Under the pieces are notes generated by a model. That model did not search any database. It was not told the origin of the DNA and saw only the letters and a list, made by a program, of their open reading frames with translations. The translations under genes were made by a program, and so were the position numbers. A stretch of 64,000 bases of DNA from Escherichia coli (GTDB lineage: Bacteria > Pseudomonadota > Gammaproteobacteria > Enterobacterales > Enterobacteriaceae), in assembly GCF_003334255.1 (NCBI RefSeq), contig NZ_QOWU01000001.1. One strand, given 5' to 3'. Position 1 is the stretch's first letter. Each line of letters begins with the position of its first letter. Below, piece after piece: positions 34,678 to 42,254 of this stretch.

Positions 34678-35046
34678 TTTATTTATATTGCGAATATAAA
34701 TATTTTCTGAAAATCATATCTCATCTCTTTCCTTAATTACGATTTTAGTTTAAACATCTCTTTGCGGAAATAATATAACTTCCTATAAATAAATATCAAT
34801 CCCATCTCCATACCCTAACCAATTGCACTTGTGAACTTATTTTTACTTAATTTTGAATTAAGTAAATTTAATTTGTTCAAAAGCTTCTAAAGTGCACAAT
34901 AGGCGACCTAATGAACAATGGTTGTAAATTTGGGTAACAAATATCATTGCTCATTAATATCTAACATTTGTTTCTCCTATTTGTGTCATGAATAGTCATT
35001 CTTCAAACATGTAGTCTGACTAATGGAATTTTATTAAAGGATTTTT

Positions 35047-35631
35047 ATGTCTAAAAAATTAGGTTTTGCCCTGTCTGGTCTTATGCTGGCGATGGTTGCA
35101 GGTACTGCTTCTGCTGATATGGACGGCGGTCAGTTAAATATCAGTGGTCTGGTTGTTGATAACACCTGTGAAACCCGCGTTGACGGCGGTAACAAGGATG
35201 GTCTGATCCTGCTGCAAACCGCAACCGTTGGTGAAATCGATGCTGGCGTACTGAATGACACCGTTGGCGCTAAAGCTAAACCTTTCAGCATCACCGTTGA
35301 CTGCAGCAAAGCAAATCCGAATCCAGGTAGCACGGCTAAAATGACCTTCGGTTCTGTTTTCTTTGGTAACAGCAAAGGGACTTTGAACAACGACATGTCT
35401 ATTAACAACCCATCTGACGGCGTTAATATCGCTCTACACAATATTGATGGTTCCACTATCAAACAGGTTCAAATTAACAACCCTGGCGATGTGTATACTA
35501 AAGCCCTGGATGCAACGACAAAATCTGCTGTTTATGATTTTAAAGCGTCTTACGTTCGTGCCGTCGCAGACCAAACAGCAACTGCTGGTTATGTAAAAAC
35601 TAACACTGCATACACCATTACTTATCAGTAA
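35047..35631 (+). CDS. yadN: Fimbrial major subunit-like protein
   Basis: 194-aa ORF with signal peptide [23 protein letters not shown] and C-terminal ...[10 protein letters not shown] typical of chaperone-usher pilins; first gene after an AT-rich leader. Confidence 0.85.
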
Positions 35632-35728
35632 GTATTCACCAGTTAAATTGATTGAATGAATATACAGGGAATAATAATTTCTATTTTATATTATTCCCTG
35701 TTTTAATTAACTCTATCAGGGATGGTTT

Positions 35729-36469
35729 ATGTTTTTTAACACCAAACATACAACAGCTTTATGCTTCGTAACCTGTATGGCTTTTAGTTCATCGTCTATT
35801 GCGGACATTGTCATTTCGGGTACTCGCGTAATATATAAAAGCGATCAAAAAAGTGTCAACGTACGTCTGGAAAATAAAGGGAATAACCCGTTGCTTGTCC
35901 AGAGTTGGTTAGATACTGGCGATGACAACGCTGAGCCTGGCAGTATTACAGTCCCTTTTACTGCTACGCCGCCAGTATCGCGTATTGATGCCAAACGTGG
36001 GCAAACAATCAAATTAATGTACACAGCCAGCACCTCACTGCCTAAAGACAGAGAGAGCGTGTTCTGGTTTAACGTACTGGAAGTTCCACCAAAACCAGAT
36101 GCAGAAAAGGTCGCGAATCAAAGCCTGCTGCAACTGGCATTTCGCACACGTATAAAACTTTTCTATCGCCCGGATGGATTGAAGGGAAATCCCTCTGAAG
36201 CCCCGTTAGCCCTGAAGTGGTTCTGGTCAGGTTCAGAAGGTAAGGCGTCATTACGAGTGACCAATCCAACCCCTTACTACGTCTCTTTTAGCAGTGGTGA
36301 TTTAGAAGCTAGCGGTAAACGCTATCCGATTGATGTGAAAATGATTGCACCATTTAGTGATGAGGTCATGAAAGTCAATGGCCTTAATGGCAAAGCGAAT
36401 TCTGCAAAAGTGCATTTTTACGCCATTAATGACTTTGGTGGCGCAATTGAAGGTAATGCCAGGCTGTAA
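35729..36469 (+). CDS. yadV: Periplasmic fimbrial chaperone (PapD-like)
   Basis: 246-aa ORF with signal peptide and a conserved PapD-fold motif (...RVIYKSDQKSVNVRLENKGNNPLLVQSW...). Confidence 0.9.
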   Translation: MFFNTKHTTALCFVTCMAFSSSSIADIVISGTRVIYKSDQKSVNVRLENKGNNPLLVQSWLDTGDDNAEPGSITVPFTATPPVSRIDAKRGQTIKLMYTASTSLPKDRESVFWFNVLEVPPKPDAEKVANQSLLQLAFRTRIKLFYRPDGLKGNPSEAPLALKWFWSGSEGKASLRVTNPTPYYVSFSSGDLEASGKRYPIDVKMIAPFSDEVMKVNGLNGKANSAKVHFYAINDFGGAIEGNARL

Positions 36470-36503
36470 TCAGGCAAGGATATAATTCCGCAGGAAGCAT
36501 AGC

Positions 36504-40330: not shown

Positions 40331-40927
40331 ATGCATCCCACTCAACGTAAGCTGATGAAGAGAATAATTCTGTTTCTGTCATTACTGTTTTGCATCGCCT
40401 GTCCAGCCATTGCTGGACAGGATATTGACCTTGTTGCCAATGTAAAAAACAGCACCTGCAAAAGCGGAATCAGTAACCAGGGTAATATTGATCTTGGCGT
40501 CGTTGGGGTGGGATATTTTTCAGGTAATGTTACTCCTGAAAGTTATCAACCAGGTGGAAAAGAGTTCACTATCACTGTATCCGACTGTGCATTACAGGGA
40601 ACTGGCGATGTGCTAAATCAGTTACATATTGATTTTAGAGCCCTTAGCGGTGTCATGGCTGCTGGCTCTAGGCAAATATTTGCTAATGAAATTTCGTCAG
40701 GAGCAAGTAATGTAGGAGTAGTTATATTTTCTACTCAGGATTCGGCGAATACATTCAATGTTCTTAATGCTTCAGGCGGATCTCGTTCCGTTTATCCAGT
40801 AATGTCGGATGACATGAATGGTTCATCCTGGAAATTTAGCACCCGAATGCAAAAAATCGATCCTGCATTGAGTGTTACATCTGGTCAACTTATGAGCCAT
40901 GTGTTAGTGGATATTTACTACGAATAA
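40331..40927 (+). CDS. yadK: Fimbrial minor subunit-like protein
   Basis: 198-aa ORF with signal peptide, ending ...VLVDIYYE. Confidence 0.8.
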   Translation: MHPTQRKLMKRIILFLSLLFCIACPAIAGQDIDLVANVKNSTCKSGISNQGNIDLGVVGVGYFSGNVTPESYQPGGKEFTITVSDCALQGTGDVLNQLHIDFRALSGVMAAGSRQIFANEISSGASNVGVVIFSTQDSANTFNVLNASGGSRSVYPVMSDDMNGSSWKFSTRMQKIDPALSVTSGQLMSHVLVDIYYE

Positions 40928-40976
40928 CAAACAAAAACAGCGCAAACCATAACAATAAAGAAACATTGGAGTAAAA

Positions 40977-42215
40977 ATGAAGACTATCTTCAGGTACATT
41001 CTTTTTTTAGCACTGTATTCTTGTTGTAATACAGTCAGTGCATATACAAGTTTTATTGTGGGAAATAATGCAGGAGTTGATAACTATCGAGGCCCCTCCA
41101 CTGCCGCACAGATGACCTTTAATTACACATCAACAGCAAGCAACTTGGTTTTTTATAAACCCACGCAGCTCGGCCCGACTGGGGTAAAAATGTACTGGTC
41201 ATACCTGGATACAGGTACCGGTGGTGGTATTCTTTACTGCAATACATCTGGCAGAGCGAATCCTGGTCCAATAACTATTGAAAATGCCATGGTCTATTCA
41301 GGTAAAGATTATGGCGGACATAAACTATTTAATACATCTGTTCCTGGTCTGTATTACACCATGTTAATATCAAGGGTCTGGTCTGCATACGATACAATAA
41401 CTGACATTCAATCGCCAGGAATCTATATCGGAGATCCTTCCAACCAAGAATTTTTCTTTTCCGTCACAGACAGCGATCTACAAACTAAGGGTTGCAACAA
41501 AGCAGACGACTACGATAAGTTTTGGGCTATTGGTGGTATAGTACACAACATAACTGTTGAATTTTATACAGATACTAATTTCGATCCTACACTTAATCAG
41601 CAAGTCCAGTTATCCAGTTCATCAAATTACCTTTATTCGTTTAAGGCCTACAGTCCTGGTACAAAAGTTGTAGATCACAGCAACCACATTTATGTCAATT
41701 TCACACTGAATAATGTCAAATTAACCTTACCAACATGTTTTACCTCCATACTTACCGGGCCATCAGTCAATGGTTCAACGGTTAGAATGGGAGAATATAG
41801 CTCTGGGACAATTAAAAATGGCGCTTCACCTGTTCCCTTTGATATCTCGCTTCAGAATTGTATTCGTGTGCGTAATATTGAAACAAAACTCGTCACTGGA
41901 AAAGTAGGTACTCAAAACACACAACTGCTTGGTAATACGCTTACTGGAAGCACTGCCGCCAAAGGCGTTGGCGTACTCATTGAAGGTTTAGCAACCAGTA
42001 AAAATCCGCTAATGACATTAAAACCTAATGATACGAATTCTGTTTATATAGATTATGAAACCGAAGATGACACCTCCGATGGGGTTTACCCTAATCAAGG
42101 TAACGGCACATCACAGCCTCTTCATTTCCAGGCAACATTAAAGCAAGACGGGAATATTGCTATCGAACCCGGCGAATTTAAAGCCACCAGTACTTTCCAG
42201 GTAACCTATCCCTGA
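40977..42215 (+). CDS. yadC: Fimbrial tip adhesin-like protein (two-domain pilin)
   Basis: 412-aa ORF with signal peptide, long N-terminal domain and C-terminal pilin-like domain ending ...[10 protein letters not shown]; last gene of the operon. Confidence 0.8.
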
Positions 42216-42219
42216 TAAC

Positions 42220-42254
42220 GTAGCAGCACTGTCACCTTCTGGCAGTGCTGCTAC
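42220..42254 (+). other. Perfect 12-bp-stem inverted repeat downstream of yadC (no U-tract)
   Basis: GTAGCAGCACTG, 11-nt loop, CAGTGCTGCTAC; begins 5 nt after the yadC stop; not followed by a T-run. Confidence 0.4.

Follow-up and report, generated by a model that had tools for sequence, protein, structure and literature searches.

The yad fimbrial operon of Escherichia coli K-12: divergent alleles and conserved hairpins at the folK–panB site

Introduction

How did a set of fimbrial genes, visibly poorer in GC than its neighbours, come to lie between folK and panB in Escherichia coli, and is it foreign DNA kept silent or an old resident of the site? The question bears on a system of some practical interest. 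According to the existing literature, Yad fimbriae help the cells to form biofilms, to persist in the environment and to colonise the bladder, and they add to fitness in bloodstream infection, while the YadC protein is a candidate target for anti-adhesion strategies. Here, we analysed the locus in a 64-kb stretch of E. coli DNA (hereafter, the window).

Results

Gene content of the folK–panB interval

Seven intact open reading frames (ORFs), all on the + strand, fill the interval between the end of folK (34677) and the start of panB (42329), and correspond to yadN, yadV, htrE, yadM, yadL, yadK and yadC (b0141–b0135 in MG1655). Exactly these seven genes are annotated in RefSeq and in MG1655, with identical order and sizes. 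The window sequence belongs to the K-12 lineage: it is the same locus as Yad of E. coli K-12 MG1655 (yadN-ecpD/yadV-htrE-yadMLKC), with three substitutions in 9.1 kb, and the complete list of protein differences is D329E and W655L in HtrE and I197S in the neighbouring PanB. The HtrE residues of both variants were found naturally in orthologues.

The yadN gene (35047–35631, + strand) encodes a major pilin of 194 aa with a Pfam Fimbrial domain (PF00419, E = 1e-11), for which StaA was the closest NCBIfam family (E = 2e-35). The next gene, yadV (formerly ecpD; 35729–36469, +), encodes a PapD-like periplasmic chaperone of 246 aa, which scored 472 bits against NCBIfam NF007398 (cut-off 285); mature YadV matched the solved structure 5GHU, "fimbrial chaperone YadV", with E = 5e-148, and PapD and FimC at about 1e-27. 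The outer-membrane usher is encoded by htrE (36504–39101, +; 865 aa, GTG start), which reached 1696 bits against NF007337 (cut-off 830) and exhibited the Pfam domains PapC_N (PF13954, residues 34–185, 5.7e-45), Usher (PF00577, 199–771, 6.4e-157) and PapC_C (PF13953, 780–844, 2.5e-19).

Among the minor pilins, YadM (39118–39687, +) has 189 aa as annotated, or 203 aa in the longest ORF, which starts at 39076; it carries PF00419 (E = 2e-25) and is closest to the NCBIfam family StaD (E = 3e-43). YadL (39699–40304, +; 201 aa) scored 448 bits against NF011795, "fimbrial-like protein YadL" (cut-off 392), and YadK (40331–40927, +; 198 aa) scored 311 bits against NF011794 (cut-off 132). The last gene, yadC (40977–42215, +), encodes a two-domain tip adhesin of 412 aa; its start in the current RefSeq annotation is at 40965, 12 nt upstream. 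All five subunits end with a penultimate tyrosine (TYQ, IYQ, TYN, YYE and TYP for YadN, YadM, YadL, YadK and YadC, respectively), which is typical of chaperone-usher pilins. Curated NCBIfam cut-offs were exceeded by the chaperone, the usher, YadL, YadK and YadC, and Pfam detected PF00419 in YadN, YadM and the C-terminus of YadC.

A PapD-like chaperone, a three-domain usher, PF00419-family pilins and a two-domain tip adhesin were therefore all found, as in a classical chaperone-usher operon, and the region is almost certainly the yad operon of E. coli K-12, building thin, flexible Yad fimbriae. The initial annotation, made from the sequence alone, had rightly recognised the locus: the gene identities that it proposed (a pilin, a chaperone, an usher, three minor pilins and a two-domain adhesin) agree with the Pfam, NCBIfam and structure matches, and its seven co-directional ORFs between folK and panB were all recovered at the same sizes. 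This identity is already known and the operon is characterised in the literature.

Base composition, leader region and H-NS

The segment from 34678 to 42254 has a GC content of 41.7%, versus 54.1% in the left flank, 53.1% in the right flank and 51.3% in the whole window; practically no other 7.6-kb stretch of the window is richer in AT. GC3 ranged from 34 to 41% in the yad genes versus 52 to 62% in the flanks, and rare codons made up 11.8% and 5.8% of codons, respectively, with the lowest fraction of the operon in yadN (3.1%). Synonymous codon usage differed significantly between the two sets of genes (chi2 = 214, df 41, p = 3e-25).

The folK–yadN spacer (34678–35046, +; MG1655 156884–157252), which forms the AT-rich leader and promoter region of the operon, is 369 bp long with 26.6% GC. 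It is the most AT-rich stretch of this length in the window (minimum at 34693), equalled by only 0.02% of 369-bp windows, and its TpA density is 0.111 versus 0.046. Sliding-window GC, GC3 and codon usage compared with the flanks thus bear out the strongly AT-rich leader and AT-rich genes described initially.

The AT-richness expected of an H-NS-silenced locus was present, above all in the leader. The 10-mer high-affinity H-NS motif was not enriched and had 0 matches in the leader, so that support for H-NS binding at the sequence level is confined to AT and TpA richness. A consensus promoter scan returned 19 promoter-like sites versus 20.3 expected by chance, and pinpointed no specific yad promoter. 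An inverted repeat at 34842–34866, TTTACTTAA-N7-TTAAGTAAA, is a candidate regulator or promoter element; it is partly kept in the K-12, SCPM, B2 and 28Eco12 leader types, the leader as a whole being only 74% identical.

Published experiments, and not our computation, uphold the proposal that the operon is silenced by H-NS. A Pyad-lux reporter in CFT073 rose more than 100-fold in an hns mutant (PMC13245861), H-NS repression of yad in K-12 was described in two studies that the same paper cites (Korea 2010; Larsonneur 2016), and yadN was flagged in K-12 H-NS ChIP datasets (PMC5797941). Moreover, the folK/yadN spacer is included in a table of H-NS-associated "promoter islands" (379 bp, MG1655 start 156927; PMC3661553).

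Distribution and divergence of yad alleles

A co-linear operon was observed between folK and panB in every E. coli lineage examined, as well as in E. albertii, E. whittamii, Citrobacter, Pseudocitrobacter and Superficieibacter. We sampled five E. coli allele types and 12 further loci from Escherichia spp., Citrobacter, Pseudocitrobacter and Superficieibacter, and the site was occupied in all of them. It was empty only in more distant genera such as Enterobacter and Klebsiella, in which a relative is located downstream of panC; in Enterobacter, Klebsiella oxytoca and others, folK sits next to panB. Of 5426 complete genomes, 3919 contained at least 80% of the query. Some genomes (H3, H18, H23, H24) exhibited IS insertions or deletions in the operon, the IS-mediated deletions being sporadic (H23, H24).

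Identity between alleles ranged from 23 to 61% for YadC and from 59 to 87% for the usher, divergence being lowest in the assembly genes at the 5′ end and rising towards the minor pilins and adhesin at the 3′ end; yadK is absent from the six-gene allele of strain 28Eco12. The left boundary of this hypervariable segment is the 3′ end of folK (34583–34677, +), where nucleotide identity to other E. coli lineages drops from 97–100% to 63–73% within the last 100 nt of the gene. At the protein level, identity between lineages was only 88–92% for FolK, versus 96–99.6% for PcnB, PanB and PanC. The right boundary lies around the candidate panB promoter, and identity to RM9513 is back to 98% from about position 42383. 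A neighbour-joining tree of ushers from the folK–panB locus only, built on identity distances without bootstrap, was incongruent with the species phylogeny.

To the initial annotation, the operon looked horizontally acquired, as a discrete genomic island placed between folK and panB by horizontal transfer and silenced as foreign DNA. Its atypical composition, its incongruent allele phylogeny and the adjacency of folK and panB in other genera fit such an origin, and both the GIST prediction quoted in PMC5797941 and the promoter-island table (PMC3661553) mark yadN as a horizontally acquired gene. However, we found no tRNA gene between 28000 and 48000, no integrase or transposase ORF between folK and panB, where the seven fimbrial ORFs are the only ones, and no direct repeats bracketing the segment. 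The hallmarks of a mobile genomic island, namely mobility genes, attachment features and a scattered occurrence in which close relatives lack the insert, were thus not observed. The same site is filled by a co-linear operon across genera, Salmonella Sta is reported at the same locus position and called ancestral (Wurpel 2013), and divergence boundaries inside folK and at the panB promoter are the pattern of homologous allelic replacement, not of site-specific insertion. We therefore consider an inserted island unlikely.

The alleles are very divergent and depart from the species phylogeny, which suggests that the operon has long occupied the folK–panB site and that its alleles are exchanged by recombination. 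Judged from the sequences, the apparent horizontal signal is that of divergent-allele exchange at a fixed site.

Hairpins after yadN and yadC

Two RNA hairpins were distinguished in the operon. The first, a candidate partial terminator or mRNA stabiliser located after yadN (35664–35710, +), has a 13-bp perfect stem (ACAGGGAAUAAUA / UAUUAUUCCCUGU), a 12-nt loop and the tail UUUUAAUUAA. With a loop of more than 8 nt, it was missed by a simple terminator scan. Of the 16 alleles folded, most have a hairpin with a T-rich tail at this position, built from unrelated stem sequences, and the tail of the equivalent hairpin reads UUUU(C/U) in most of the other alleles.

The second hairpin (42219–42255, +) is GC-rich, ends the operon and begins 3 nt past the yadC stop. 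Its stem comprises 13 perfect base pairs, or 16 with one G-U pair, around a 5-nt loop, with a dG of -30.4 kcal/mol (z = -7.0 versus shuffles). The hairpin without a U-tract previously noted after yadC does exist and does lack the U-tract, the tail 3′ of the stem being GGAUAAAUCAUUG, although its perfect stem measures 13 bp and not 12; the terminator scan gave no call here. The segment end used initially, 42254, drops the last base of this hairpin.

Downstream, the consensus scan located a candidate panB promoter (42265–42292, +) with the elements TTGCCC-16-TAAAAT and an upstream TG. These elements are kept in diverged O157-like alleles as TTGCCT...TGTTAGAAT.

The post-yadC hairpin might be a chance palindrome or a generic REP-like repeat with no role in the operon: besides lacking a U-tract, it has no Rfam family, and MG1655 carries no annotated feature at its site. 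Such an origin is, however, very unlikely in view of its stability relative to shuffles and of its conservation. A hairpin was present in most of the 16 alleles, 3 to 15 nt from the adhesin stop, in some cases with an unrelated stem sequence. Among six alleles sharing a GCAC/GUGC core, 9 of the 13 pairs were changed on both sides and 87% of cells were paired, a covariation reached by 0 of 500 shuffles, slid controls being 22–50% paired. Moreover, the counterparts in E. whittamii and Pseudocitrobacter faecalis end in true U-tracts (UUUU). A selected structure with a role at the operon end thus remains the reading that we prefer. The stem is GC-rich and has no U-tract in K-12, so it should not be filed as a canonical intrinsic terminator; the K-12 element acts at best like a terminator or a protector of the transcript 3′ end.

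YadC fold and function of the fimbriae

The full-length structural model of YadC matched FimH, PapG, CupB6, FocH and CfaE. Its N-terminal domain matched adhesin receptor-binding domains, with no close solved relative, and is predicted to adopt an adhesin receptor-binding fold, in answer to the structure prediction that had been proposed as a check. The specificity of YadC and the conditions that switch on the operon, described initially as open, are partly answered in the literature. Reported YadC ligands are D-xylose-containing glycans and annexin A2 (PMC12442223; PMC6921372), and xylose docking and variability of the lectin domain have been described (PMC13245861). Expression of yad is de-repressed by SlyA overproduction (PMC5797941) and induced by human serum (PMC13245861), and it has also been reported to respond to low temperature, to anaerobiosis through ArcA and, in O157, to acid stress.

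YadN was detected by antibody as the major subunit (PMC13245861), and Yad fimbriae were observed at the cell surface by electron microscopy and ELISA (PMC13245861; PMC7098969). The idea that the operon is a decaying, non-functional relic, cryptic through degeneration and not regulation, could draw on its silence under laboratory conditions in the literature, the IS insertions and deletions mentioned above and the two htrE missense changes of the window, but is extremely improbable given that the seven ORFs are all intact, that 3919 genomes retain at least 80% of the query, that both htrE variants are natural in orthologues, that constitutive expression has been reported to yield functional fimbriae (Korea 2010; Larsonneur 2016; both cited in PMC13245861), that in vivo induction accompanied by an effect on fitness is on record, and that the conserved, covarying hairpins argue for continued selection.

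Discussion

A bolder reading, to which we give about an even chance, is that the folK–panB locus is a long-lived polymorphic cassette shared across species (Escherichia, Citrobacter, Pseudocitrobacter), whose deeply diverged allele lineages (usher about 60% and adhesin about 23% identical) are exchanged by homologous recombination, with breakpoints at the 3′ end of folK and in the promoter of panB. Each allele would carry two functional hairpins, conserved in structure and divergent in sequence, one after the major pilin gene that sets subunit stoichiometry, and one after the adhesin gene that ends or protects the transcript and insulates panB. The literature examined mentions neither covarying hairpins nor breakpoints in folK and the panB promoter. 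The evidence that the two hairpins are selected structures, the fold-level placement of the YadC N-terminal domain and a sharper view of the locus as an ancient series of recombining alleles, as opposed to an inserted island, are modest additions to what is known.

The operon probably works as follows. Published data place the start of transcription in the AT-rich folK–yadN spacer, where H-NS keeps it off in laboratory conditions until repression is relieved by antagonists or cues such as SlyA, low temperature with anaerobiosis via ArcA, or serum. As in other members of the family, subunits would be exported by Sec, captured by YadV through donor-strand complementation and handed over to HtrE, where polymerisation by donor-strand exchange would start with YadC at the tip, continue with the adaptors YadK, YadL and YadM, and end with the YadN rod. 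From its conserved position, the post-yadN hairpin with its U-rich tail could partially terminate transcription or stabilise the yadN message, leaving the rod subunit in excess. On the same grounds, the covarying post-yadC hairpin may define or protect the end of the message and insulate the adjacent panB promoter. As for its evolution, the locus is most probably long established at this site in Escherichia and its relatives and no recent mobile island, with highly divergent alleles swapped by homologous recombination between breakpoints in the 3′ end of folK and the panB promoter region.

Comparison with known fimbrial systems

Type 1 (Fim) and P (Pap) pili share with Yad a PapD-like chaperone, a PapC/FimD-type usher, PF00419 pilins and a two-domain tip adhesin, and by analogy their assembly by donor-strand exchange probably applies to Yad. 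Within this family, Yad has been assigned to the gamma-4 class of the Nuccio and Baumler usher phylogeny, a clade that includes Yeh and Sta (PMC7098969; Wurpel 2013), and its morphology has been described (PMC7098969).

Salmonella Sta (staA-G) provided the closest named NCBIfam relatives of YadN, YadM and YadL (StaA, 2e-35; StaD, 3e-43; StaE, 4e-51). These scores are below the Sta equivalog cut-offs, so the proteins are homologues and the two systems are not the same fimbria. Sta and Yad form a clade in the usher phylogeny with an identical locus position, and Yad was described as core-associated and "ancient", or ancestral (Wurpel 2013). Our genome scan did not recover the Salmonella locus, and the synteny of Sta therefore rests on that study.

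At this same site, the operons of O157:H7 (ECs0139-0145) and E. albertii share with K-12 the flanking genes, the order of the seven genes and the location of both hairpins, whereas identity to K-12 is only about 60% for the usher, 40–48% for the pilins and 23% for the adhesin (369 aa versus 412 aa). These divergent operons have been named Yad and assigned to the gamma-4 class (PMC7098969), and phylogroup E was scored Yad-negative at an 80% usher threshold (Ellison 2026). An ancient, recombining allele series would explain why surveys at 80% identity score phylogroups D and E as "Yad-negative".

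Gene content and identity of the locus

Between folK (34198-34677) and panB (42329-43123), the list of ORFs drawn up for 32000-45000 contained seven co-directional genes on the + strand, with products of 194, 246, 865, 189/203, 201, 198 and 412 aa, the sizes given in the initial annotation. The RefSeq order is folK / yadN yadV htrE yadM yadL yadK yadC / panB panC rpnC panD, with yadM annotated as starting at 39118 and yadC starting at 40965 in the current RefSeq; in MG1655, the yad genes are b0141-b0135 (MG1655 coordinate = 191930 minus window coordinate). A megablast search of 5,426 complete E. 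coli genomes matched 34000-43000 to K-12 derivatives with 100% coverage and 99.97% identity.

YadV, HtrE, YadL, YadK, and YadC surpassed the curated NCBIfam equivalog cut-offs. The PapC_N, Usher, and PapC_C domains were present in HtrE, the Fimbrial domain PF00419 was found in YadN, YadM, and the C-terminal half of YadC, and mature YadV matched the solved structure 5GHU. Each of the five subunits had tyrosine as its penultimate residue, as is usual for chaperone-usher pilins, and the closest named relatives of the Yad pilins were StaA, StaD, and StaE of Salmonella. A defence-system reading was rejected, as PADLOC models matched none of the seven Yad proteins.

The locus is a known, well-studied operon, which the initial annotation recognised correctly; earlier literature has established its mechanism, namely chaperone-usher assembly together with H-NS silencing that is counteracted by cues. 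What the present analysis adds is limited to the covarying hairpins, the sites at which the breakpoints lie, and the placement of the YadC N-terminal domain by fold.

Compared with MG1655, the whole 64 kb carried 12 substitutions, one deletion of 1 bp (MG1655 188662), and one of 10 bp in the dgt region (MG1655 180080-180089), with differences at, for example, positions 3279, 11851, 7779, 11511, 17570, 19764, 20104, 27517, 28037, 31189, and 56220. The window is of K-12 lineage but not MG1655, and these differences suggest either a laboratory derivative that has acquired mutations or errors in the assembly. Three substitutions fell at yad-panB: D329E and W655L in HtrE (37490 and 38467) and I197S in PanB (42918). 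None was present in MG1655, in ER1709, or in the best matches from the set of 5,426 complete genomes; these matches scored as three mismatches. A damaged usher was rejected because both variant HtrE residues occur in orthologues; Ile197 of PanB was invariant in 23 orthologues. Far outside the yad locus, a self-match of 62034-62194 with 62130-62290 (87% identity, offset of 96 nt) points to a short repeat, tandem or dispersed, at 62034-62290.

Base composition, codon usage, and silencing

The leader (34678-35046) comprises the 369 bp between folK and yadN and has a GC content of 26.6%. Among all 369-bp stretches of the 64-kb sequence, only 0.02% matched this AT-richness, and the global minimum lay inside the leader. 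The segment 34678-42254 had a GC content of 41.7%, versus 54.1% and 53.1% in its flanks, and essentially topped the 7.6-kb stretches of the window in AT-richness. GC3 ranged from 34 to 41% in the yad genes versus 52 to 62% in gluQ, pcnB, folK, panB, and panC, rare codons were twice as frequent (11.8% versus 5.8%), and synonymous codon usage differed from that of the flanks (chi2 = 214, df 41, p = 3e-25). The exception was the major subunit gene yadN, with only 3.1% rare codons. The AT-richness described in the initial annotation was thus confirmed, and codon usage was atypical as well.

H-NS silencing, which had also been proposed there, is borne out by published work on hns-mutant reporters and by ChIP. 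In K-12, the operon is reported to be under H-NS repression (Korea 2010 and Larsonneur 2016, as cited by PMC13245861). In CFT073 and EC958, mutation of hns raised Pyad-lux activity by a factor of more than 100, an effect that was complemented (Ellison et al. 2026, PMC13245861). Three H-NS ChIP datasets flag the yad locus, and overproduction of SlyA raised yadN expression 2.4-fold (Curran et al. 2017, PMC5797941). An H-NS-associated 'promoter island' of 379 bp was described at MG1655 156927, yadN/folK (PMC3661553); it corresponds to 34625-35003 of the window, essentially the leader. A scan for consensus promoters returned 19 sites versus 20.3 expected and did not locate the yad promoter. The high-affinity H-NS 10-mer TCGATAAATT, with up to two mismatches, was not enriched in the yad segment and had no occurrence in the leader, a result regarded as uninformative and not counted against H-NS.

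The leader also contains an inverted repeat, TTTACTTAA-N7-TTAAGTAAA, at 34842-34866. It was partly kept in four K-12-like leader types, whose overall leader identity was 74%, and could be a candidate binding site for a regulator.

Function of Yad and predicted fold of YadC

Yad belongs to the gamma-4 class, and its fimbriae are thin and flexible; acid stress induces the operon (ECs0139-0145) in O157 Sakai (PMC7098969). Human serum also induces the operon, and its deletion attenuates bloodstream infection (PMC13245861). According to the same study, expression in K-12 responds to low temperature and, via ArcA, to anaerobiosis, and its discussion describes Yad as having no phase variation. YadC is described there as an adhesin of two domains, of which the lectin domain is variable; D-xylose, its known ligand, was docked into the lectin domains of K-12, EC958, and CFT073 (PMC13245861). 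Annexin A2 has been reported as the YadC receptor, with xylose as a ligand or inhibitor (Li et al. 2019, PMC6921372; 2025 review, PMC12442223). As an hns reporter and a structure prediction of YadC are already published, the experiments proposed in the initial annotation have essentially been done.

Pfam identified only the C-terminal pilin domain of YadC (residues 265-411), and a sequence search against the PDB gave no match at E ≤ 1, so a comparison of folds was needed. An AlphaFold2 model built from a 29-sequence alignment had a mean pLDDT of 90 and a pTM of 0.77. In a Foldseek search against the PDB, the full-length model could be aligned with the two-domain tip adhesins FimH, PapG-II, CupB6, FocH, and CfaE across about 400 columns. 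The N-terminal domain gave fold matches to the receptor-binding domains of adhesins, with Abp1D (7.4), MrkD1P (6.9), AtfE (6.9), UclD (6.6), LpfD (6.4), CupB6 (6.0), and GafD (5.9), at about 10% identity and with 126-140 of 211 residues aligned. Because the predicted fold resembles that of tip adhesins, YadC appears to possess the lectin-like N-terminal domain on which the initial annotation depended; in the model, this domain is a distant, larger lectin-like variant with no close solved relative.

Island or resident locus

The initial annotation regarded the segment as a horizontally acquired island. The atypical composition on which this view was based is real; the hallmarks of an island were not found. 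There was no tRNA at the locus, no integrase or transposase ORF between folK and panB in the ORF list, and no direct repeats bracketing the segment. Lineages in which megablast matched the flanks only still carried a co-linear fimbrial operon at the site.

In four other E. coli alleles, identity to the K-12 proteins was 98% for PcnB, 96-99.6% for PanB, 99-99.6% for PanC, and 90-92.5% for FolK. The corresponding ranges were 41-86% for YadN, 59-85% for YadV, 59-87% for HtrE, 45-76% for YadM, 28-70% for YadL, 40-77% for YadK, and 23-61% for YadC. The allele of E. coli 28Eco12 had six genes, the yadK equivalent being missing. By sliding identity, the right boundary of divergence was at ~42283-42382, in the promoter and start region of panB, and the left boundary was within the final 100-300 nt of folK, where nucleotide identity collapsed; the hypervariable segment therefore begins within a housekeeping gene. 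FolK itself varied more between E. coli lineages (88-92% identity) than its neighbours PcnB, PanB, and PanC (96-99.6%), the region concerned being the 3' half of folK (34383-34677), and the O157-like allele (of the O157:H7 kind) alters the FolK C-terminus and its length, to 160 aa. Strain RM9513 combined K-12-like flanks (PanB 99.6% identical to that of the window) with an O157-like operon.

Wurpel et al. (2013, PMC3559732) described Yad as core-associated, intact in 94% of their strains, and found at one shared locus in almost all E. coli; they termed it 'ancient' since the Salmonella equivalent, Sta, occupies the identical position. We interpret the segment as a long-standing resident of this site, with alleles swapped through homologous recombination within the conserved flanking sequence, and not as a recently inserted island; the island label should give way to 'ancient, recombining, hypervariable locus'. 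The divergence of the recombining alleles also explains why phylogroups D and E were scored as Yad-negative in a survey at 80% identity.

The locus in other genera

An HtrE alignment was used to scan one genome per species, and the flanking proteins were then located by tblastn; two arrangements emerged. The operon lay between folK and panB in E. whittamii and other Escherichia species, Citrobacter werkmanii, C. portucalensis, Citrobacter sp. FP75, and two Pseudocitrobacter genomes. It was seen on the folK side in E. albertii, whose contig ends before panB, and on the panB side in Superficieibacter electus, with folK outside the DNA examined. In Enterobacter species, Klebsiella oxytoca, C. gillenii, and others, folK adjoined panB, and a related seven-gene operon with a 45-49% identical usher lay 2-3 kb downstream of panC (loci L015, L016, L018-L020, L022, L024-L027, and L060). 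Given this related operon downstream of panC, the pan/fol neighbourhood may be a recurrent home of the Yad-related fimbrial family.

In a neighbour-joining tree of ushers, which was built without bootstrap and is therefore indicative only, the folK-panB group stood apart from the group located after panC, the E. coli alleles were polyphyletic, and the Citrobacter and Pseudocitrobacter species were split between clades. The O157-like usher was 90% identical to that of E. albertii, 98% to that of Escherichia sp. E1V33, and only 61% to that of K-12; a third E. coli type, E69, stood at ~60% from both K-12 and O157-like ushers.

In the C. werkmanii locus (L009), an additional gene resembling that of the major pilin separated the first pilin gene from the chaperone gene (~5497-7243), a 1.2-kb 'intergenic' stretch there holding a YadN-like ORF. 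Four Citrobacter and Superficieibacter loci (L009, L021, L041, and L011) had a conserved hairpin in common, GCGGCCAT...ATGGCCGG, immediately ahead of the start codon of panB. This hairpin was missing from E. coli and may be a candidate panB 5'-UTR element.

Hairpins after yadC and yadN

An Rfam scan of 34000-43200 (E ≤ 1) found no known RNA family; its sole match, a miRNA family over the yadN-yadV hairpin, scored 22.6 bits versus a gathering score of 93 and was considered spurious.

The hairpin after yadC (42219-42255) has a perfect stem of 13 bp, or 16 bp with one G-U pair, a 5-nt loop, and a dG of -30.4 kcal/mol (z = -7.0 versus dinucleotide shuffles). The initial annotation had rightly described it as lacking a U-tract, which sets the K-12 form apart from a canonical intrinsic terminator; the stem had been given as 12 bp, and the segment end at 42254 cut off the last base of the hairpin (42255).

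In most of 16 alleles, a GC-rich hairpin lay within 3-15 nt of the stop codon of the adhesin gene, with the panB ATG 63-87 nt downstream. The automated search missed or misplaced it in 28Eco12 and in loci L008, L009, and L011; manual folding recovered it in 28Eco12 and L011, found it weak in L009, and gave no convincing hairpin in L008. Six alleles shared a GCAC/GUGC core, the remaining stem varying with compensation: both sides had changed in 9 of the 13 pairs, and 87% of cells were paired versus 69 ± 3% in shuffles, none of 500 shuffles reaching the observed values (slid registers, 22-50% paired). In more distant alleles the stems were unrelated in sequence, and those of E. whittamii and Pseudocitrobacter faecalis were followed by real U-tracts. 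A conserved promoter-like motif, TTGCCC-16-TGaTAAAAT, lay directly downstream of the post-yadC hairpin. From this sequence evidence, we infer that the hairpin is an operon-terminal element that would end or protect the yad transcript and insulate panB.

Between yadN and yadV, the initial annotation had not mentioned an element at 35664-35710 with the tail TTTTAATTAA. Its 13-bp perfect stem (35664-35701) is followed by UUUUAAUUAA. Most alleles folded had a hairpin and a U-rich tail at this position, with unrelated stem sequences, which suggests a candidate conserved attenuator or stabiliser. Considered with the good codon usage of yadN, the hairpin is consistent with transcription ending in part, or the message being selectively stabilised, downstream of the gene for the major subunit, a design known from pap and fim.
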